This document shows, piece by piece, positions 30,221-61,564 of a stretch of 64,000 nt of DNA. The notes beneath the pieces were generated by a model. The model did no database searches, was not told the origin of the DNA, and saw only the letters and a list, made by a program, of their open reading frames with translations. Made by a program: the position numbers and the translations under genes. Source of the stretch: Mustelus asterias (taxonomy: Eukaryota); contig NW_027590338.1 of assembly GCF_964213995.1 (NCBI RefSeq), forward strand, positions 62,001-126,000, read 5' to 3'. Each line of letters begins with the position of its first letter. Within the stretch, counting starts at the first letter, position 1.

Positions 30221-30895
30221 TCACTTGTGAACTCGCTGGTGTCTCAGCAGGCTGGATGAAACTCTGAATCCCTTCTCACACACAGAGCAGGTGAATGGCC
30301 TCTCCCCGGTGTGAACTCGCTGGTGTGTCCGCAGGGTGGATGAATCTCTGTATACCTTCCCACATTGAGTGCAGCAGAATGGTCTCTCCCCAGTGTGAAC
30401 TCGCTGGTGTGTCCGCAGGTTGCATAACTGAGTGAATCCCTTCCCACACTGAGAGCAGGTGAATGGCTTCTCTCCAGTGTGAACTCGCTGATGTGTTTGC
30501 AGGGCATATAAATCATTGAATCCCTTCCCACACTGAGAGCAGGTGAATGGTCTCACCCCGGTGTGAACTCGTTGATGTACCTGCAGGCTAGATAGCCGAG
30601 TGAACTCCTTCTCACATACAGAGCAGGTGAACGGCCTCTCCCCAGTGTGAACTCGCTGGTGTGACTGCAGGCTGGATAATTGAGTGTATCCCTTCCCACA
30701 TACAGTGCAGGTGAATGGCCTCTCCCCAGTGTGAACTCGCTGGTGTGTCTGCAGGGTGGATACAATACTGAATCCCATCCCACACCAAGGGCAAGTGAAT
30801 GGCCTCTCTCCAGTGTGAATGCGCCGATGAGCTTCAAGATATGATGGGAATCTGTATCTCCTCCCACAGTCCCCACATTTCCACGGTTTATCCAT
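30221..30895 (-). CDS. C2H2 zinc-finger protein (8 fingers)
   Basis: ATG at 30895 (CGCACCATGG), 8 fingers with HTGERPF linkers, acceptor TTACAG|GATATT near 31247. Confidence 0.92.
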
Positions 30896-31789
30896 GGTGC
30901 GGGTGTCCTTGTGACTCTCCAGGTTAAACAATCAGTTAAATCTCACACAGAACACGGGTACAGTCTCTCCCGCTGTGAATGCTGCGATGTATTTTCAGGC
31001 TGTGTAACTGGTTAAAGTTCTTTCCACACTCATTGCACTGGAACACTCTCACTCGGGTGTGTGTGTCTCAGTGCATTTCCAGTCACAGCGATGTTTAAAA
31101 TCTTCTGAAGCTGATTGACTGGGCAAACATTTCTCCTTCTAGATTCAGAGCCTGATGATATTCAGGTCCCAAGGAATCGAGTCACTCTGTCAGATCCAGA
31201 TCTGACATTTTAGATTTCTGTCTGTGATTTCTCCTCATCTAATATCCTGTAATTCAATTTAAGAAAAACATCACAATTCAGTACATGATCAAAATTCAAA
31301 TCAGTCAATTCTAGTTTCTATGGAACATTCTTTAAAGACACAGTCATGGAGCATTAAACTTGCCGAGCAGGGCCTCCCGTATCAGGACACAGGCAGCTGC
31401 TTTTTGAGACTGCCAGCAGTACAGACAAGTCAGAGATAAGGGTGTCCTCAGAAGAAGGAATCATTATGATGGCTCAGGGATGGCTGATGAGATGTAGGAA
31501 TTCTATGATTCTAATGAACATTCTTTCCTCTCTCCTTCCCCCAAAGCTGTGAATCTCCATCCCACACACTCTCCCTCCATTCTCACTCTGCTGTATCTAA
31601 TATTCACCCTCCCAATTCTCCTGAAGGTGCTGATTGAGGCTGATTGACAGATCCATGCTCACTGGTTCGTGTCTTGGACATAGAGAGCTCAGAGTCTCCA
31701 TGCAGGCTGCCAGACAGATATATGTCTCTATGACTGGACTAACAATGTGTGGAATGTACAGACTGGATTCACTTCCTTTCCCTTCAGTT

Positions 31790-33600: not shown

Positions 33601-33682
33601 TGATCAGTTGCTGCAAGTCAACAGTTTCCCCCGAGCATGAAAAAAGGAATGGAAGGGGGGAGAAAAGAAAGTGTTTTACTCA

Positions 33683-33744
33683 CAGATGTTGGAGAGACAG
33701 GAGGAAGTTTGAGTCTGTCTGAAGCTCAATCTTCATTCAGAGAG
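33683..33744 (-). other. Putative 3' half of the non-coding exon 1 of the ZNF gene at 30895, with splice donor
   Basis: Minus strand reads ...CTCCAACATCT|GTGAGTAAAAC (GT at 33683). It joins across the TSD to 41218 onwards, directly below the promoter. Confidence 0.55.
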
Positions 33745-33874
33745 ACCTCTTTTTTTAGGTCAAACCAAGTAAACAAACTCAAATTAAATCAGGACAAAGT
33801 AAAAGGGGCAGCTCCCCAAAAAGGAGGGGGAACAGCCCGAACAGAAATCAAAATGCAAAGGAAACTTAAAAACA

Positions 33875-36800
33875 TCAAATTAAAATGTGATTATTAGGGT
33901 CAATAATGCACCCCAACCCCTGCGGTGCCCAGCGGGCGCGGAAAGCGTCAACCTCGCCCGTGGACGCCGCATGCTCCCTCTCCAGGGACACCTGGCCGCG
34001 AACGTAGCCGCGGTAGAGGGGAAGACAGTCAGGATGGACGGCCCCCTCGATCGCCCGCTGCCTGGACCGGTAAATGGCGCGTTTCGCCAGGCCCAGGAGC
34101 AGGTTCACGAGGAGGTCGCCATCCCGACCCTCCCCTCTCCGCACCGGGTGTCCGTAGATCAGGAGCGTGGGACTGAAGTGCAAACAAAACATCAATAAAA
34201 GGTTCTTCAGGAAAACATAAAGGGAGTGCAGCCTAAGACACTCAACATAGACATGGTCCACGGACTCCACAAGGCCACAGAAAGGGCAGTCTTCGGAGCC
34301 CGTGAACCAGTGAATCCTACGGTTGTGCGGAACTGCTGCATGCATCACCCTCCACCCCAGGTCCCCGACGTAATTGGGGGAGATCCCTCCGTAGAGGGAC
34401 CTCCAGCGGGGACCTCCGCCGCCCGGCGGCAACAAGGCCCGCCAAGGTGTATCCGGGCGACAGGCGAGGAGGCGGTAGTGGAAGGTGTGCAGCAGCAGCC
34501 CGCACAGGAAACGCCTCCGCGCGGTAGAAAAAGGCACGGAGGGCATTTCCGCGAGGCGGCTCAGGCTGTGGGGCACCTCACCCAGGGGAGGGGGCTGAGG
34601 CTTTGGGCCAATGTGGAATTCCGCCCGAACAGGGGAACGCTCGGGCGGGATCCCACCGCACGCCTGCGCCGTCTCAAGTTTGCGTGCAGTTTCGGGGCCG
34701 AGCACGACCGTCCTAAGGTCGAGGATGGCTTTGGCCGCGTGCCAGACGGACGTCCCCGCGCGCTCAGCCAGCACGCGGGGACTCATCCAGCCCGCTCCTC
34801 CGCCATCGAGCACGTCCCCGATTCTGGTCACCCCGGCGTCCACAGCCCCCCTCTCCGCCAGCCACCTGAAGTTATACGGCTGGAGGAGCGGATTCCTGAG
34901 CAGCGGCTCTCGCACGAGAGCCGCTACTCCTGACGGGGGAGAGCTGCGTCGCGAGGCGACCTTGTTCCAGACAGTGAGGAGGTCCTGGTAAAAGACGGGC
35001 AACTCCTGCAGGGTGGTCGAAGCACGCCCCAGTTCGATATGCAGGAGCTGCACGTCATAATTGAGGCCGTGCCACTGGCGGAAGAAATACGTCGCCATGG
35101 CACACCACTGTGGAGGGGGCTCAACGTAAAGGTACCTCTGCAGGGCCTGGAGGCGGAAGGTCGCTATCTGAGTGCGGAGGCACACCAGACCTTGTCCGCC
35201 CTCCTCAAGCGGGAGATACAGGACCGCAGCAGGGACCCAGTGCAGTCGATTGCCCCAGAAGAACCGCACGAGGGTTCTCTGGATATCGGTGACAAAGCCA
35301 GGGGGAGGGGTCAAAGGGACCAGCCGGTACCACAGCATGGAGGCGACCAGCTGGTTTATGACGCGAGCTTGCGCCCCGTAGGACAGCACTCGGAGCAGTC
35401 CTGTCCAGCGACTCAGGCGGGCGGAGACTTTGGCCTCCAGCTCCCGCCAGTTCGCCGGCCAGGATTCCTCGGCTGGGCAGAGATGGGCCCCCAAGTAGAG
35501 GAGGTCGGTCCTGCTCCAGGTGAAAGGCCTGAGCTCCTCCGGAAGGGGGTCCGTCTCCCAAGGACCAACAAGGAGTCCGGAGCACTTGGCCCAGTTGATC
35601 CTGGCGGAGGACGCGGCGGAGTACACCGCCTGGCATTCTCGCATCCTCCGCAGGTCAGCCGGGTCCGTGAACATGAGGAGCACGTCGTCGGCGTAAGCTG
35701 ACAGGACCACCCCTACGTCCGGTCCGCGCAGGACCAAACCTGACAACCTCCTCCGCAAGAGGCGCAGGAATGGCTCCACGCATACGGAATACAGTTGGCC
35801 GGACAAGGGGCAGCCCTGCCGTACTCCTCTCCCGAAGCGAAGGGGCGCCGTCAGGGACCCGTTAACCTTAATCAGACACTCTGCGGCAGAGTACAGTAAT
35901 CGGATCCGGGCGACAAAATGCGTCCCGAACCCGAATGCCCGCAGAGTCCCGAGTAAATACTCGTGCTCCACCCTGTCGAACGCCTTCTCCTGATCTAATG
36001 ACAAGAAGGCGCCCGACAGACCAGCCCTCTGGGTGTGATGGATTAGGTCCCGGACCAGGTGGAGATTGTCATGTATGCAACGGCCCGGGACCGTGTAGGA
36101 CTGGTCAGGGTGGATCAAGTGGTCCAGCACGGATCCAAGGCGTGAAGCCATAGCCCTGGCAAAGATTTTATAATCCGTGCTGAGGAGGGAGACCGGGCGC
36201 CAGTTCTTGAGCAGGTGGAGATCCCCCTTCTTGGGCAGCAGGGCAATGACGGCCCTGCGCCACGAAAGGGGCATCTCCCCGGTAGCGACGCTCTCCCCCA
36301 GGACCCCCGCGTAGTCGCTCCCCAGGACGTCCCAGAACGCCCTGAAGAACTCTACTGTCAGCCCGTCCAGTCCAGGGGCCTTGCCCCGGCTGAGGCCATT
36401 TAGGGCGCCGGTCAGCTCGGCCATGGTGGTAGGGGCCTCGAGCCTGCCGACGCCCTCCGGGCCGACCTGCGGCAGGTCCTCCCACAGAAGTCTGCGGGCA
36501 TCCTCGCTGGACGGATCCGGAGAGAAGAGCGAGGTGTAATACTCCCGGGCAATGGCCCGGATGCCCTCCGGATCCGAGACGGGGGAACCGTCGTCGGCCA
36601 GCAGCGTAAGGAGCTGCTGACGGTTAGCCCGCCCTCTTTCCAGCGAGTAGAAGAAGGGGGAGCCGCGGTCCAGGTCCACCTGGAACTGGAGCCGCGACCT
36701 CACGTACGCGCCGCGAGACCTGGCAAGCTGCAGGTCCCGCAGCGCGTCCTTCTTCTCCCTGTACTCCGAACGCAGGGCCGGGTCCGCGTCAGGCCGACTG

Positions 36801-37768
36801 AGACGTGCCTCCAGGTCGAGCACCTCCTTCTCCAACTCCTCGAGCCTGGATTTCCGCCTCTTTGTCGACCCCCTCGCGTACCCCTGACAGAAGGTACGGA
36901 CGTGAGTCTTGCCCACATCCCACCAGAGCCTCAAGGAGGGGAAGCCTCCCCGCTTCCTTCTCCAGCCGGCCCAGAATCGACGGAACGAGTCCAGGAAGCG
37001 CTCGTCCTCCAGCAGCGTGTTGTTAAAGTGCCAGTACGCGGACCCCCGCCGGATGCGAGACGGCGCAAAGTCCGCCCACACCAGGCTGTGGTCCGTGCTC
37101 GACACCGGCCGCATGGAGACCGAGGACACGCCGGACACGTGCGCCTTCGAAATGTAAAGGCGGTCGAGCCTGGACGCTCCGACTCCAGGCCTCACGAAAG
37201 TGAAGGCGCTGGAGCCAGGATGGAGATGTCTCCAGACGTCCACCAAGTCGTGGGACCCGATCAGGTCCCGCAACTTCACCACCGCCGGAGTGCGCAGCCA
37301 GGGGCCGGTGCGGTCCCGTGCCTCGAGGATGCAGTTGAAATCTCCCCCGAGGATAATGCATTCGCCCCCCGCGATGGTGTCGATGTGAGCGGACACTTTC
37401 TCGTAGAAAGTCGTTTGCTGCGGTCCAGCGGTCGGGGCGTAGACATTCAGCAAGTGAATGACCACGCCCCCCTCACGGACCGTCAAGTGCAGCAACCGGC
37501 CTGGCACCGGCTCCTTGACCCCCAAGATCTCCGGCTTATAACGCGGGGCCAACAAGATAGCCACCCCGCAAGAAGCGAGCGTGAGGTGGCTCATGTAGAC
37601 CCCCCCTCGCCACTCCAGGAGCCATTGGGCTTCGTCTCCCGGAACGGTGTGGGTTTCCTGCAGGAAACACACCGCATACTTCCCGTCACGGAGGACCGAG
37701 AAGTTCTGGAACCTGCGGTGTGGCCCACTGCTGCCGTTGATGTTGAGGCTGGCTATGGTCACCTTCAT
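33875..37768 (-). CDS. Tx1-like ORF2 (AP endonuclease, reverse transcriptase, C-terminal Cys/His motif)
   Basis: SLNING, LQETH, NVYAP, GGDFN, RLD and TDH endonuclease motifs; NWRPVSLL, DQEKAFD, GVRQGCPLS and YADD RT motifs; CPFC..ESVDHVYVEC. 1297 aa, uninterrupted. Confidence 0.95.
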   Translation of the reverse strand: MKVTIASLNINGSSGPHRRFQNFSVLRDGKYAVCFLQETHTVPGDEAQWLLEWRGGVYMSHLTLASCGVAILLAPRYKPEILGVKEPVPGRLLHLTVREGGVVIHLLNVYAPTAGPQQTTFYEKVSAHIDTIAGGECIILGGDFNCILEARDRTGPWLRTPAVVKLRDLIGSHDLVDVWRHLHPGSSAFTFVRPGVGASRLDRLYISKAHVSGVSSVSMRPVSSTDHSLVWADFAPSRIRRGSAYWHFNNTLLEDERFLDSFRRFWAGWRRKRGGFPSLRLWWDVGKTHVRTFCQGYARGSTKRRKSRLEELEKEVLDLEARLSRPDADPALRSEYREKKDALRDLQLARSRGAYVRSRLQFQVDLDRGSPFFYSLERGRANRQQLLTLLADDGSPVSDPEGIRAIAREYYTSLFSPDPSSEDARRLLWEDLPQVGPEGVGRLEAPTTMAELTGALNGLSRGKAPGLDGLTVEFFRAFWDVLGSDYAGVLGESVATGEMPLSWRRAVIALLPKKGDLHLLKNWRPVSLLSTDYKIFARAMASRLGSVLDHLIHPDQSYTVPGRCIHDNLHLVRDLIHHTQRAGLSGAFLSLDQEKAFDRVEHEYLLGTLRAFGFGTHFVARIRLLYSAAECLIKVNGSLTAPLRFGRGVRQGCPLSGQLYSVCVEPFLRLLRRRLSGLVLRGPDVGVVLSAYADDVLLMFTDPADLRRMRECQAVYSAASSARINWAKCSGLLVGPWETDPLPEELRPFTWSRTDLLYLGAHLCPAEESWPANWRELEAKVSARLSRWTGLLRVLSYGAQARVINQLVASMLWYRLVPLTPPPGFVTDIQRTLVRFFWGNRLHWVPAAVLYLPLEEGGQGLVCLRTQIATFRLQALQRYLYVEPPPQWCAMATYFFRQWHGLNYDVQLLHIELGRASTTLQELPVFYQDLLTVWNKVASRRSSPPSGVAALVREPLLRNPLLQPYNFRWLAERGAVDAGVTRIGDVLDGGGAGWMSPRVLAERAGTSVWHAAKAILDLRTVVLGPETARKLETAQACGGIPPERSPVRAEFHIGPKPQPPPLGEVPHSLSRLAEMPSVPFSTARRRFLCGLLLHTFHYRLLACRPDTPWRALLPPGGGGPRWRSLYGGISPNYVGDLGWRVMHAAVPHNRRIHWFTGSEDCPFCGLVESVDHVYVECLRLHSLYVFLKNLLLMFCLHFSPTLLIYGHPVRRGEGRDGDLLVNLLLGLAKRAIYRSRQRAIEGAVHPDCLPLYRGYVRGQVSLEREHAASTGEVDAFRARWAPQGLGCIIDPNNHILI

Positions 37769-37796
37769 GTCAGCAGCTTTGTGCCACCGTCACCAC

Positions 37797-39898
37797 TTAA
37801 CTAGGTGTGTGGGGGGGCGCTGGCGCAATTCTCACCAGTCCACCCCCCACCTTTTCGAGCCTGTGGAGGAACCGCAGTACCCAGCGCCGCTCTATTTTTT
37901 CCAGGCCCGCGGAGGCATGCGAGCATGCCTTCACGGACCGGACGAGCTGCGCCAGGTCCGGCCAGCGGCCGAGGGCTAGCCGGATTATGTCGGAGCGACC
38001 GGAATGGCTACGGATAAAGACACTGAGGTCCTTGGAGGGGATGAGGGACGACTCGGTGGGGGGCACGAGGGAGTCCCCCGCCTCGCTCTGGGCAGACTCT
38101 GAAAGTGTCCCCGTGCCCTCCACCGAGCCGCTGACCTCCTCAGGGCGGTCGCCCCTCGACTCCGAGTCCCCCGCCGCAGGACGTACGGCGGGCGGCACGG
38201 AGCCACCAACTAGCCCTAGCCCCTCCCCGATCCCACCCCCAGGATCGGTGGAGGAGGGGTTCCCCCCGGGCTCACCTTTCCCGGATTGCGGGCCCCCGTG
38301 CGACGGCGGCCCAGCCCCCCCCCCCCCGCCCCAGACGCTTGGACACCCCCCAGGTCCGGTGTATCCTTCGGACTGAGGTTGGGGATGTCCAGCGTCCAAG
38401 GTCGGGACGGAGAGGACGAGTGGATCGTCTCTTCGCCGCCGCCGCACGAGGACATGAACATTGGAGTGTCGCCCCAGTCCCCCGACAGACTGAAGAAGAA
38501 CTCCGGGTTGTAACCGGCCGGGTGGAACGGAACCGTGGGGGCCCCGCTGCCACCCGGCCCCGGAGACTCCTCGCCGGGGGACTGAGGCAACACATGCTTG
38601 GATTTACAGGGTGCCTTGCCCCCTTTTTTCGCGGGACAAGGCACAAAGACAGGTGGGGGCACGGCAGGAGATGACTCACAAGGGGGGAGGGGCACGCAGA
38701 CCTCGAACGCTACGGTGCCCGAGGGGCCCCGCCTCTTTTTGTTAACCTGCCCTCGGGCAGGCGAGGCCCCTCGCCCTCCGCCCCTCTTCGCCTTGCCGCG
38801 CCCCCCCTGCTCTCCCGTCACTTCCCCCCGAGGTGGCGGCGTCGCCAGTTTTGCCGGCTCGGGGTCGCTTACCCCCCCATGCTCGGGCCCATGATCCCGG
38901 GCGCCGGACCCAGCACTAGGCCCCGGAGAGCCCACGGGCCCGGCAGATGGTGGTGGTGGTGGTGGGGGGGGGGCGCAGGTGGAGACTGAGGCGGTCCCCG
39001 AGCCGGCTGCCGGGGTGGTTGGGGTGTTTTCCCTGGGGGCCGGGGTTCCGGTACCCCCCTTCTTTTTTGTAGGTCCCTTCTGGGCCTTTTGGCCGCGCGG
39101 GGGCTCCGCTCCCCCCCCGCCGGCAGCTGAGGTGGCAGCTGCTGCTGGCGTGGCCTCCCCTCGTGGGGGGGCAGATGGTACTCGCTTGGGGGGAGAGGGG
39201 GCTGCGGTGCCAGCTGCGGCCGCCTTGGGTTGGTGGTCGGCGGCCTTGGAGACGGGGCAGTTTTTCCTCACGTGCCCCGCCTCCTTACAGGCATGGCACC
39301 GCACACCGTCCGCGGACCAAAAGACCCGGTACGTGGTCCCCTCGTGGGGGACATTGAAACCTCCCTCCAGTTCATCCTCCCGGGCCAGGCGGACAAAAAC
39401 CTGGCGCCGGAAGGAGTAAATATGGCGGAGGAAGGGGTCCCGAAGGCCGAGCGGGACCGGCTGCACCCCGGACCTGACCTCCCCCAGTAGATGGAGGTGG
39501 GGGAGGAGGAGCTCACTCGGTAGGAAGGGTGGGACGTTCGATATTACTATCTTGTGGGCGGTGGCCTCCAAAGGGTCCACCGCCAGGAACGTCCCGCCCA
39601 CCGTGAGCCCCTTTTCCAGGGCGAGGCGAACCGCCCGCTCGGCCTTCAGGAAGAATACGGCCCGGCCGTACATCTTTGAGGCCGCGACAATGGCTGAGGG
39701 GCCGACAACCCCAGCCATTGCCTTAACGCAGGCCTCGATAGACATGTCGGGGTGGGCGTAGCACTTCACCCCGAGCTGCCGCGTGATTAAAGAGAATGGC
39801 GGCAGGGCCTTGGGAGCGGCGGGGGCTCTGGCAGCCGCCACGCCCGCATAGGTGGGCCGAGAAGGCCCTGCCACCGGCGACGCTGGTGATGTCGCCAT
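37797..39898 (-). CDS. Tx1-like ORF1 (gag-like, CCHC knuckle), split into two overlapping frames
   Basis: 39898-38216 has ASKMYGRAVFFL, ISNVPPF, SFRRQV and CHACKEAGHVRKNC. The amphipathic C-terminal region continues in the -1 frame (38447-37797). A G13 run at 38315-38327 lies in the overlap. Confidence 0.85.
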
Positions 39899-40287
39899 TG
39901 TATCAGGGGAAGTGCTACACCCACCCCGAGACTGCCCAGATGCACGGCAGGGCGTATGTGGGATGGGGAAGATAAGGCAGGGTGGGGTAGGCGGGGAAGG
40001 GTGTAGGTGCTCTCTCCCCGGAGCGAGAGAGGGAGAGAGGAGGTTGGAGGAGCAGGAGGGAGATGAGGCACAAGGCCGGTGCCCCAGTCAGGAGGGAAAA
40101 GGGGAGGGGGTGCCGGTCCCGGGGGCAGCAGTAGTGGGTAGGGGAAATAGGAAAGGTCTTCACCCCCCCCACTGCAGATGGAAAAGAGACAGTCCAAACG
40201 CCTTCGCCCCCCCCCTCTCCTCCAGTCACTCCCTGTCCTCTCTTCCTCCCCCCCCCCCCGGGGAGAGCGCACCCTCCAGAGGCCGGA

Positions 40288-40912
40288 TGGCAGGCAAGCA
40301 GGCAGTCAGGCAGTCCAGACGGCAGGCAGGCTAGACGGCAAGCAGGCAGGCAGGCAGTCCAGACGGCAGACAGCCCAGACAGCAGGCAGGCAGTCCAGAC
40401 GGCAGGCAGGCAGGTAGGTAAGCAGGCCAGACGGCAGGCAGGCAGGTAAGCAGGCCAGACGGCAGGCAGGCAGGTAAGCAGGCCAGACGGCAGGCAGGCA
40501 GGTAAGCAGGCCAGACGGCAGGCAGGCAGGCCAGACGGCAGGCAGGCAGGCCAGACGGCAGGCAGGCAGGTAAGCAGGCCAGACGGCAGGCAGGCAGGTA
40601 AGCAGGCCAGACGGCAGGCAGGCAGGTAAGCAGGCCAGACGGCAGGCAGGCAGGTAAGCAGGCCAGACGGCAGGCAGGCAGGTAAGCAGGCCAGACGGCA
40701 GGCAGGCAGGTAAGCAGGCCAGACGGCAGGCAGGCAGGTAAGCAGGCCAGACGGCAGGCAGGTAAGCAGGCCAGACGGCAGGCAGGCAGGTAAGCAGGCC
40801 AGACGGCAGGCAGGCAGGTAAGCAGGCCAGACGGCAGGCAGGCAGGTAAGCAGGCCAGACGGCAGTCAGGCAGGTAAGCAGGCCAGACGGCAGGCAGGCA
40901 GGCAACAGGCAG
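40288..40912. repeat. Minisatellite in the Tx1 5' UTR, 28-bp unit GGCAGGCAGGCAGGTAAGCAGGCCAGAC
   Basis: About 20 directly visible copies with 20- and 24-bp variants. Confidence 0.95.
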
Positions 40913-41259
40913 GCCGGGCAAGGCAGGCAGCAGCTCACCTCCCTCCTTCCTCCCCGCAGGGAGCGAAAAACAAACAAACCCAACAAAACAAAAACAAAAA
41001 CCGGGCGTCTCCGTGAGCAAAAACGAGAGAAAAAAAAAATAAAGGTACTCACAAAAAAAGAAAAGAAGACAAACCCACAGTTTCCGCCCGGCTCCGACCC
41101 GGGGCCCCCCGCTACTCGGGCGAACGTGAACTCACCCCACCCCAGAAACAAAGTGCAGGCGCTGCCCCAGAGGAGGCACGTTTCAGGCCGTCTGAAGCCC
41201 AATTCTCATTCAGAGAGGAGCAGCAGCAGCTTTGCTGGGCAGGAATGAGCAGCTGAACA

Positions 41260-41680
41260 AGCTCATTGTCCACTTCCGCATTCAGACAATGGGGGAGCTC
41301 TGATTGGCTGGAGGACCAGAGAACGTCCGGTCCTCCAACTTTCCATTGGCCAACACCTCAGCAGCAGGTCAAAAGGTTGGCTCCCCCCGCACATGCGCAT
41401 CTTCCCCTCTCCCTTGGAAATGCGCAGTCCCGGGCCGAGGGAGGGGGCGATCACTACGCGGCTTCTCGCTCTGGCCGGAGCCGTCAGCCGGTTGCCTGGA
41501 AACCGTGGCTGGAAGAGGTGGAGGGGGAGAGGAACAATGGGTGGGGGCGGGGCTCCCGGGTCCGCGCCCCCGGGCCTGCGCACCGGAGACGTCATCGCGG
41601 AGCAGAATGATTCCTCTTGGCTGATTTCGGCAGAGCTCTATTATGGACGTCACAATGCGGAAGTTGTACAAAGTCCCTCC
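41260..41680. promoter_or_regulatory. CpG-island, probably bidirectional ZNF promoter
   Basis: ETS-like ACTTCCGC (41272) and GCGGAAGT (41658) in opposite orientations, ATTGG boxes, NRF1-like TGCGCA, GC box and GACGTCA. Candidate + strand donor CAG|GTATAT at 41854. Confidence 0.7.
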
Positions 41681-42151
41681 TCTGGGCAACATCTGGGAGG
41701 AAATCAATGTTTCCCCCTTTCCATTTCTTTTCTCATTCTGGGGGAAATTGGGGACTTGCAGCAACTGAAGGGAAAGGAAGTGAATCCAGGGAGGCTGCAG
41801 ACTCTGGAAAGGTTACAGATGAAGACCGGATTCAGGAACAGGACTAGGCCCAGGTATATTTTTGTTTCTCTCTCAAAGACATTGACATCTTTTAGTTCCC
41901 TCAGTTTATCTGGCTAATAGGGTAGCCTCTTACCCAATGTTCACAATTCAGTTTTCCCAGAAGAGGGCTAACATTTAAATCAACAGTAAATTTGTATGGG
42001 AGAGAGATATGTTATTTATGATCCCATATTTTTTGTCTTGAAATATACAGCAGTGTGGCTGCTTTATCAATTTCCAGTGATGCAGAGATTACAACATAGA
42101 AGGAAATGCATTTGGCAACTTAAATCCATGCTAACTCTCCATGGTAGCCAT

Positions 42152-59540: not shown

Positions 59541-60099
59541 TGAGAGAAGTTTCCTGAAGCGGTGGCAAAATATTTGGTTACACTTCAGGCTCCTCATATT
59601 TACAGAGAAACATACGAGAAAATAGAAGTGGGGAGGAGGCCACTCGGCCCTTCGAGCCTGCTCCGCTGTTCATTATGGTCATGGCTGATCATCAAATTCA
59701 ATATTGTAATCCCGCCTCCCCCCCCACCCCCACCCCCCGATTCCCTTGATCCCCAAGGAATGTATCTAATTCCTTATTGAAATCAGACTCTACTTCTACT
59801 TTTGAGGAAGGGAGTTCCAAAGATTCAAGACTCTCTGAATGAAAAAAATCTTCTCATCTCTGTCTTCAATGGGCTGCACTGTTTGTTAAACAGTGACCCC
59901 CAGATTCTCCCATAAGAGTAAACATCCTCTCCACATCCAAGATCTTTCAGGATCTTGAATGTTTAAAGTAAGTTGCCTCTTACTCTTTTAAAGTCGAGCA
60001 GAAGCTAAACTTGAGCAGAGACTGTCTCTGGTGTTATTATATGGTAAGAAGTTTAACAACACCAGGTTAAAGTCCAACAGGTTTATTTGGTAGCAAAAG

Positions 60100-60144
60100 C
60101 CACACAAGCTTTCGAGGCTCTAAGCCCCTTCTTCAGGTGAGTGG
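60100..60144 (-). ncRNA. Minimal type I hammerhead ribozyme motif
   Basis: Mirror copy of 60952-60996 with an intact core. Confidence 0.7.
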
Positions 60145-60951
60145 GAATTCTGTTCACAAACAGAACTTATAAAGACACAGACTCAATTTACATGAATAAT
60201 GGTTGGAATGCGAATACTTACAACTAATCCAGTCTTTAAGAAACAAAACAATGGGAGTGGAGAGAGCATCAAGACAGGCTAAAAAGATGTGTATTGTCTC
60301 CAGACAAGACAGCCAGTGAAACTCTGCAGGTCCACGCAACTGTGGGAGTTACAAATAGTGTGACATGAACCCAATATCCCGGTTGAGGCCGTCCTTGTGT
60401 GTGCGGAACTTGGCTATCAGTTTCTGCTCAGCGACTCTGCACTGTCGTGTGTCGCGAAGGCCGCCTTGGAGAACGCTTACCCGAATATCAGAGGCCGAAT
60501 GCCCGTGACCGCTGAAGTGTTCCCCAACAGGAAGAGAACAGTCACCAGGCAAGACTGTTCTCTTCCTGTTGGGGAGCACTTCAGCGGTCACGGGCATTCG
60601 GCCTCTGATATTCGGGTAAGCGTTCTCCAAGGCGGCCTTCGCGACACACGACAGCGCAGAGTCGCTGAGCAGAAACTGATAGCCAAGTTCCGCACACACA
60701 AGGACGGCCTCAACCGGGATATTGGGTTCATGTCACACTATTTGTAACTCCCACAGTTGCGTGGACCTGCAGAGTTTCACTGGCTGTCTTGTCTGGAGAC
60801 AATACACATCTTTTTAGCCTGTCTTGATGCTCTCTCCACTCCCATTGTTTTGTTTCTTAAAGACTTGATTAGTTGTAAGTATTCGCATTCCAACCATTAT
60901 TCATGTAAATTGAGTCTGTGTCTTTATAAGTTCTGTTTGTGAACAGAATTC

Positions 60952-60996
60952 CCACTCACCTGAAGAAGGGGCTTAGAGCCTCGAAAGCTTGTGTGG
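60952..60996 (+). ncRNA. Minimal type I hammerhead ribozyme motif
   Basis: CCACUCAC-CUGAAGA-A-GGGGC/GCCUC-GAAA-GCUU-GUGUGG. Confidence 0.7.
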
Positions 60997-61564
60997 CTTT
61001 TGCTACCAAATAAACCTGTTGGACTTTAACCTGGTGTTGTTAAACTTCTTACTGTGTTTACCCCAGTCCAACGCCGGCATCTCCACGTTATTATATGGGA
61101 CAGATTTACTTCTGGTCCTGTAATAAATGCATTTATTATTTCCAGTCTTATAGTCCTGTAGCTACGTTATATATTTCCAGTCATAGAGTCATTCCAGCAC
61201 AGAAGGAGTCCATTGGACAACTCGAGTCCATACCGACTCTCACAGTAATTTCATAGTTTTTCACAGTTTTTTTGTGATTTTCACAGTGACTTCATTGCAG
61301 TGTTAATGTCAGCATCCTTGTGACACTAATTAATAAATTATCAAAAATAAACTATAAACTGTCTGTCGAGCAATTCTGTCCGTCTGGAGTGGGTCCCATT
61401 CTGTAACCCTGCAGCACCCATCCAATCACATTTAGAAATTATTGATCATCTCTGCTTGACTACCCCCACAGGCAGCAAGTTCAAGATCATCATCAATCGC
61501 AACCCCCTGTATCTTCACCAACTGGAGCCATCCGATCCATTAAATATATTTTTAGTTCAATCAT

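Follow-up and report, generated by a model that had tools for sequence, protein, structure and literature searches.

Described sequence-specific long interspersed nuclear elements (LINEs) insert into RNA genes, microsatellites or other transposons, at least in the available portions of two accounts (PMC4494074, PMC4640811). One of them is Tx1L of Xenopus laevis, for which the available portion of the first account gives sequence-specific insertion into a multicopy target (PMC4494074). Here we describe a Tx1L-like element in a 64,000-nucleotide stretch of the Mustelus asterias genome (contig NW_027590338.1, positions 62,001 to 126,000; the whole stretch is called the window), where it sits on the minus strand in the first exon of a C2H2 zinc-finger (ZNF) gene. 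With a probability of about 0.8, we think that a young LINE subfamily inserts preferentially, and in the sense orientation, at one site in the ZNF first exon, that the host promoter likely drives its transcription and that its leader likely derives from an ancestor once located farther downstream in that exon. The target preference and the captured leader are well supported.

Tx1L (ORF2 is YTX2_XENLA, P0015) and the element described here are alike in having two open reading frames (ORFs), an apurinic/apyrimidinic-type endonuclease (APE) and a reverse transcriptase (RT). However, Tx1L targets the non-autonomous DNA transposon Tx1D, whereas our element is directed at the first, non-coding exon of protein-coding genes and has a leader built from exon and tRNA sequences. 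The crocodilian Tx1-Mar families, as presented in the available part of their description, have two preferred sites in one target, heads derived from U1 or U2 and passengers in the same target that resemble short interspersed elements (SINEs) and are called SINEU; these families are suggested to depend on flanking transcription, and the source of one SINEU 5' extension is intronic sequence of RING/B-box genes, a multicopy family (PMC4494074). The element here works in a similar manner, with two sites per target, a small-RNA head and passengers. However, the Tx1-Mar target is a Mariner DNA transposon and the heads are small nuclear RNAs (snRNAs), whereas here the head is a tRNA and the target a ZNF exon; a captured host exon or splice donor is present here, and none is described for Tx1-Mar in the portion of PMC4494074 available. 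Keno, Kibi and Koshi of the Tx1 clade, and also Utopia, resemble our element in having multicopy targets, and Utopia occasionally inserts in tandem, but their targets, as far as the available text goes, are U2 snRNA genes or microsatellites and Utopia has a restriction-like endonuclease (PMC4494074, PMC4640811).

R2 is co-transcribed with its 28S rDNA host, according to the available part of the same account (PMC4494074). Both R2 and the element here insert in sense in a transcribed multicopy gene, would need no promoter of their own and would have target sequence at the 5' end of their RNA; R2 differs in that its endonuclease is restriction-like and its host is transcribed by Pol I, and the element here is not a member of R2. 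The 5' junction of R2 is formed by homology. Human SVA_F1 is a retroelement subfamily that adopted exon 1 of MAST2 as its 5' end. SVA_F1 is non-autonomous, is not target-specific and carries the promoter along, whereas the element here returns to the gene family. A full-text literature search found no Tx1 family that targets first exons of protein-coding genes; Repbase and subscription journals lay outside its reach, and a prior database entry is possible. A radiation directed at non-coding first exons in protein-coding genes would open a new niche for sequence-specific LINEs.

The element is a full-length non-LTR (lacking long terminal repeats) retrotransposon of a young subfamily, which we call site A (33746-41217; this and the other features of the gene and element are on the minus strand unless stated). 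ORF2 is intact (33875-37768, 1297 aa), and its endonuclease and RT domains are both past the Pfam cut-off (PF03372, E 6.9e-13; PF00078, E 3.4e-37). The nearest named protein is the Xenopus Tx1L ORF2 (60% in the RT region, 48% across 1297 aa), and other full-length copies are 99% identical to the window copy across ORF2. ORF1 (38216-39898) has 560 aa in the window copy and a frameshift in a G run near 38327; two of the ten full-length copies checked (L134 and L135) have an intact ORF1 of 699-700 aa, with a weak candidate CCHC knuckle in that of L134 (zf-CCHC, E 0.0045, 17.5 bits against a cut-off of 20.8). The element has no poly(A) tail, and its RNA must therefore end in or past the flank. Clean target-site duplications (TSDs) of 12-16 bp were found 11 times among 32 ends examined at 28 loci; for most of the remaining ends the 5' end lay beyond the locus or there was no match of at least 8. 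Judged by its domains, similarity and TSDs, the element is a member of the Tx1 clade; it is a young Tx1L-like LINE with ORF2 intact and ORF1 frameshifted.

Upstream of the element is a promoter-like region with the 5' part of ZNF exon 1 (41218-41720; CCAAT at 41307 and GGAAGT near 41278). Downstream are the remnant of host exon 1 (33678-33745), with a short upstream ATG and the host donor TCT/GTGAGT (G at 33683; the slash marks the exon end), and exon 2 (30221-31246), with its acceptor at 31246, its ATG at 30895 and an intact ORF of eight C2H2 fingers; the element leaves this coding exon untouched. A 34-nt stretch from the host side of the junction has 95 exact matches genome-wide (control 0). 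Among 40 target sites fetched, 38 are empty, GTGAG is in position in 39, sense C2H2 fingers lie within 9.4 kb of 38 and antisense fingers occur at 6. The conserved acceptor was located in 35 of the 40 fetched genes, and in silico joining of exon 1 to exon 2 put the exon-1 ATG into the reading frame of the fingers in none of these 35. Because GTGAG and the sense fingers are conserved and the ATG is never in frame, we infer that the target is exon 1, short and non-coding, of a C2H2 ZNF family whose genes have two exons. A reading of the window made from its letters alone (the sequence-only reading) had expected the displaced host stretch to be exonic in uninterrupted paralogs, and the empty sites with their retained donors agree with it.

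The signature of the site-A subfamily marks 181 exact 3' ends in the genome. A strict target pattern was applied to the 100 of these that were listed, which lean to large chromosomes, where the ends are off target. It is present at 54, of which 15 belong to a single 132-bp tandem on C89; with this tandem counted once, about 40 of 86 listed ends are on target. The on-target places are either the host exon-1 site or the exon-like tip of another copy, and the flank share is above the 20% used to call a non-LTR family target-specific (PMC4494074). Of the best 30 3' ends, host exon 1 accounts for 13 and the tip of another copy for 11, with the other 6 lying elsewhere, while 30 5' tips lie behind ZNF exon 1 (10) or behind another copy (20) and never elsewhere. 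This tally, with 24 of the 30 best 3' ends on target, bears out the earlier proposal of a family preference for the multicopy first exon of ZNF genes. The exon-like tip itself serves as a target for further copies, since head-to-tail arrays contain differing tip variants and the four copies of one array represent three leader types. The C89 tandem (G000:C89:2431503-2433809), with 15 3'-end/tip junctions at 132-bp spacing, is a small satellite built from the element junction.

Several points weigh against the reading given at the outset. The strict target pattern is missing from 46 of the 100 listed ends, and the tail shared with other subfamilies is present at 1457 ends, of which 127 have the site-A target, a share below 20% when site A is taken alone. 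All 38 ends sampled on three large chromosomes are short dispersed copies, and their next bases are GCA, CCA or ACA in 36, TCT in one and TCA in one. Because the sampled large-chromosome ends are all dispersed and the site-A target accounts for only 127 of 1457, the specificity is a loose preference, and part of the on-target excess may come from selection or amplification. The counts also take in segmental duplicates, such as the C89 tandem and one truncated copy common to several arrays. The order of events proposed below rests on an eight-sequence alignment and on a tree rooted for drawing only, and the exon status, the start site and transcription from the host promoter rest on conservation and one contig of unrecorded library type.

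A related set of elements uses a second site in the same exon. Just before the host donor there are 188 exact junctions (control 0), and the TSD at this site is 14-15 bp and copies the donor itself. In the tree, which was built from 90 ends of at least 400 bp and whose bootstrap is not fully settled, the donor-site copies and most of the copies flanked by VCA group in a clade separate from the young TCT copies (support 99/93). Between the site-A clade and the donor-site clade, 11-13% of the endonuclease-domain residues differ. As judged from these junctions and the tree, an older sister clade is at home at the exon-1 donor. Two related clades thus have cut sites separated by about 50 nt within one short exon and endonucleases that are about 88% identical, a natural experiment on how the specificity of an APE-type enzyme shifts that would be of value for site-specific RNA-templated gene insertion. 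Passengers with the element tail also occur at these sites, namely tRNA-Arg, tRNA-Gly and a SINE end; the tRNA-Arg passengers have a 14-bp TSD, and a junction of this type is present in 6 of the 40 fetched target genes. Examples of tRNA-Arg(ACG) and tRNA-Gly fused to the element 3' tail at the exon-1 donor are L076:1567-1641, L083:1394-1468, L122 and L198. A SINE-like 3' end bearing the Tx1 tail is found in the middle of the exon at L225, L194 and L201, flanked by a TSD of 14 bp, and a distinct element ending in GAAAAGAAA also terminates at the donor site. A separate subfamily for a mid-exon 'site B' was considered and is weak, as five of its nine matches are a single amplified event.

The leader of the element displays a complicated order of parts. 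From its 5' end it has an exon-1-like tip, which is a diverged copy of the host exon end with the host-donor position destroyed (41150-41217), a decayed tRNA-Val with its stems still paired (41079-41149) and a second exon end with the donor TTT/GTGAGTA (41046-41052), a captured second copy of the host exon-1 donor. These are followed by a short intron-like stretch, a relic acceptor (CAG in older copies, CGG in the window), a purine-rich mini-exon (40939-40956), a predicted third donor GAG/GTGAGC (40933-40938) and an 8/12-nt tandem array of variable length in the 5' untranslated region (40289-40930). This order comes from an alignment of eight sequences, namely one empty gene, four older leaders and three young ones. 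Positions 41171-41217 match 33699-33744 at 83% over 47 columns (39/47), and the score of the 35 nt beyond the 12-mer that begins the tip was reached by 0 of 10,000 shuffles. The sequence-only reading had described a 35-nt mimic of the displaced host sequence; the similarity stands, but the limit at 35 nt does not, as the copy extends through the exon end into the tRNA-Val and the second host-donor copy. Its suggestion that the tip was captured from a paralog and is not an aged TSD fits the finding that the tip is common to the family (94-100% identical in 40 copies scored genome-wide) and 23% diverged from the host.

The donors were surveyed in 44 distinct leaders that have the tRNA arm, 27 young and 17 older, which are not independent of each other. 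The GT at the host position is lost in 42 leaders and kept in 2, and the idea of a 'replacement exon' in the leader fails on this count. The motif GGG/GTGAGT at 41135, once proposed as a functional donor, is in the D-loop of the decayed tRNA and occurs in 24 of the 44 leaders, all of them young, and in none of the 17 older ones; such a role is not supported. The donor at 41052, by contrast with these two claims, is homologous to the host donor by the leader alignment, as its resemblance had suggested; it is present in 34 of the 44 leaders and retains GTRAGTA, its exon side having turned into a T run. The third donor at 40938, which had been overlooked, is the best conserved and is present in 42 of the 44. 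In predicted folds all three leader donors are mostly paired.

Rfam and ARAGORN identify tRNA-Val(GAC) in older leaders. Three older leaders score 43.8-54.2 bits with RF00005, and the window copy (L031) and two young leaders give no hit; by its alignment to the older leaders, the window segment is tRNA-derived and is not a tRNA gene. In six related sequences, the young relic departs from the older consensus at 3-7 of the 42 positions in stems and at 13-15 of the 30 in loops (Fisher p 5e-5 to 8e-3), and all of the stem changes leave a pair, with 96.7% of the cells paired. Selection on the tRNA-like fold is suggested rather than demonstrated by this pattern, because many of the changes are A to G and keep their pairs by wobble. 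A stem-preserving tRNA relic in the leader of an autonomous LINE is a separate oddity that can be tested.

The RNA material consists of four runs with good coverage, all as Logan contigs of a type not on record and from at most two samples; such contigs show presence, not absence. In run X10 one contig bridges ZNF exon 1 into the tip and runs through 41135, and a second runs through 41052. The exon/intron depth ratios of X10 are RNA-like, though depth cannot rank the parts. Transcription of the element from the host promoter is likely in view of the bridging contig. Over 40900-41330 the X10 contigs have no joints, and there is no loose end at 41136 or 41053 among the 6 listed of 10; 40900-41001 is masked, which hides 40938. 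On L131 neither an exon-1/exon-2 joint nor a donor joint was present among the 15 joints listed of 1442, a table swamped by SINE and finger repeats. Retrocopies spliced at 40938 were also sought, and neither expected junction occurs in any of the 72 matches. In one older leader form, however, the exon side of the 41052-type donor is fused to the mini-exon and the intron is precisely gone; this form has 39 exact copies with one common flank and is possibly a single event. Because it lacks exactly that intron, the captured donor has probably been used, to an acceptor inside the element. That acceptor is mutated in the young subfamily.

Some further observations concern the donors and contigs. 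At L131:9662, contigs of X8 and X9 track the promoter and then depart from it immediately ahead of the tip, which hints weakly that those samples lack the insertion. At L141:7646-8563 a full-length copy is behind a ZNF promoter, the host exon-1 remnant and donor are missing, and exon 2 is about 450 bp downstream, which makes it a natural test case for use of the leader donors. A multiplied ZNF gene in which the host donor is deleted (7 of 11 loci) was considered as one relying on the donor at 40938 and was rejected, as a second promoter-like block precedes exon 2 and the ORF is conserved no better than the 5' flank. The array unit of the young subfamily (40289-40930 in the window) holds CTTACCTG, the antisense of a consensus donor, which resembles U1. 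This motif pairs with the donor at 40938 in the window fold but not in that of L131, and it is absent from the older leaders compared; the array as a U1 mimic that hides the donor was rejected.

These patterns could be explained as follows. A tRNA-Val retrocopy would have landed at the exon-1 donor, duplicating it, and an element would then have landed behind the retrocopy. Transcripts from the host promoter would have carried the exon, the tRNA and the donor as the new 5' end of the element. The cut site would later have shifted about 50 nt upstream, with the exon copy remaining in the element and diverging, so that the present leader would be a relic of an ancestor seated at the donor site. 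In each new insertion the endonuclease would nick a short word specific for the subfamily, TCT for site A and VCA for its sisters. Reverse transcription of the host-promoter transcript would be primed by the target, perhaps aided by read-through RNA, and the exon-like tip would pair with the target at the 5' junction and rebuild it, which would allow new copies to stack.

Other explanations were weighed. The leader donors may have been kept so that the element is spliced out to ZNF exon 2 and the host mRNA is restored. Since exon 1 is non-coding, any upstream donor would serve, and the retention of GTRAGTA at 41052 despite its changed exon side, the near-universal donor at 40938 (42 of 44) and the precise intron loss in the 39 exact copies, perhaps one event, all fit such a function. 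Each of the eight insertions examined at site A also has ZNF ORFs of 5-14 fingers behind it (in two cases split, or truncated at the fetch limit), but the insertions are young and intact ORFs therefore tell us little. Moreover, the X10 contigs read through 41135 and 41052 with no joint or loose end, the sole splice fossil uses the acceptor inside the element and not that of ZNF exon 2, the 41052 donor is absent from 10 of the 44 leaders and the donors are mostly paired in the folds. The loss of the host-position donor in 42 leaders is what one would expect of an element that avoids being spliced out. We therefore regard host sparing only as a tentative explanation, and rescue of the ZNF mRNA through the donor at 41052 or 40938 is likewise possible but less likely than not. 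Targeting might instead be led by the RNA, if the RNA reads through into exon-1 sequence, ends there and pairs with the nicked DNA, the rest being due to open ZNF promoters. The dispersed copies, which retain just the first 3-4 bases of the site (VCA in 36 of 38; TCT with the site-A signature), and the need of an RNA without poly(A) to end in or past the flank are consistent with this. However, the short word in the dispersed copies belongs to the genomic TSD and fits a nick preference equally well, and the 11-13% of residues at which the two endonucleases differ leave room for a changed specificity; we consider RNA-led targeting unlikely.

It could also be argued that the preference is an artefact, in which duplication of ZNF clusters and gene conversion spread a few chance insertions. 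A single tandem does supply 15 of the 54 on-target ends, several arrays have one truncated copy in common, one leader relic is amplified in near-identical blocks and the flanks of element-bearing genes are often mismatched. On the other hand, the same 3' junction base recurs across many types of host paralogs, differing leader types occur inside one array, the donor site and the middle of the exon have independent short insertions, each with a TSD of its own, and tRNA and SINE passengers are present at the same bases. These observations largely refute the artefact, which we consider highly improbable. That the exon-like tip is only an aged long TSD of this single insertion has practically no chance of being correct: the tip does start with the duplicated 12-mer, yet it is 94-100% identical in 40 copies and 23% off the host, and the TSDs of the family are 12-16 bp. 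A broader version of the preferential-insertion reading would be a vertebrate LINE radiation at home in exon 1 of a large and perhaps transposon-silencing ZNF family, with a purpose-built leader that provides a host promoter, a stacking mimic, a tRNA-like fold for RNA processing or transport and donors that splice part of the transcripts to the finger exon, its copies acting as hinges that swap promoters between paralogs. We offer this as speculation that is more probably wrong than right by a wide measure.

The 12-bp repeat around the window copy is more difficult to explain than it seemed. The upstream copy of CTCTCTGAATGA is at 41206-41217 and the downstream copy, which starts the host exon-1 remnant, at 33733-33744. 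The sequence-only reading had placed the element, this repeat, the 39/47 alignment and the donor-like motifs correctly, but its treatment of the repeat as a plain TSD did not hold up. The window promoter fits one paralog clade and the intron and exon 2 another, with a score of 0.05 with the downstream kin, and because the flanks belong to different clades the repeat probably did not arise as the TSD of a single event. Among the 28 empty genes with kin, 24 have a promoter concordant with the body, and three further occupied genes with a ZNF promoter upstream, one of them with a short upstream stretch, score 0.27-0.59, below the 0.6 line. Ectopic recombination between near-identical copies is a likely cause of the mismatch, and misassembly may be another.

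ZNF families are implicated in transposon control, in the available part of a report that makes no mention there of sharks (PMC10547256), and for that reason a LINE that homes into ZNF promoters bears on the conflict between ZNFs and transposons. A predicted turtle protein (P0032) has a Tx1 RT fused with KRAB and C2H2 domains; judging from this fusion, Tx1-related elements may occur in ZNF genes of other vertebrates. The window has, at 41640-41900 on the plus strand, an opposite-facing, divergent and degenerate exon 1 with a decayed donor, and from it the ZNF promoter looks bidirectional. In one group of paralogs (L016, L022, L133, L324 and L329) exon 1 is broken by 5S-rRNA-like/SINE sequence and has also been struck at site A; 3' transduction was considered for L016 and L022 and ruled out, as both are paralogs with the 5S-like insertion in exon 1. 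Finally, a near-perfect 500-bp inverted repeat, with nine bases between its arms, is present at 60044-61052 of the window.

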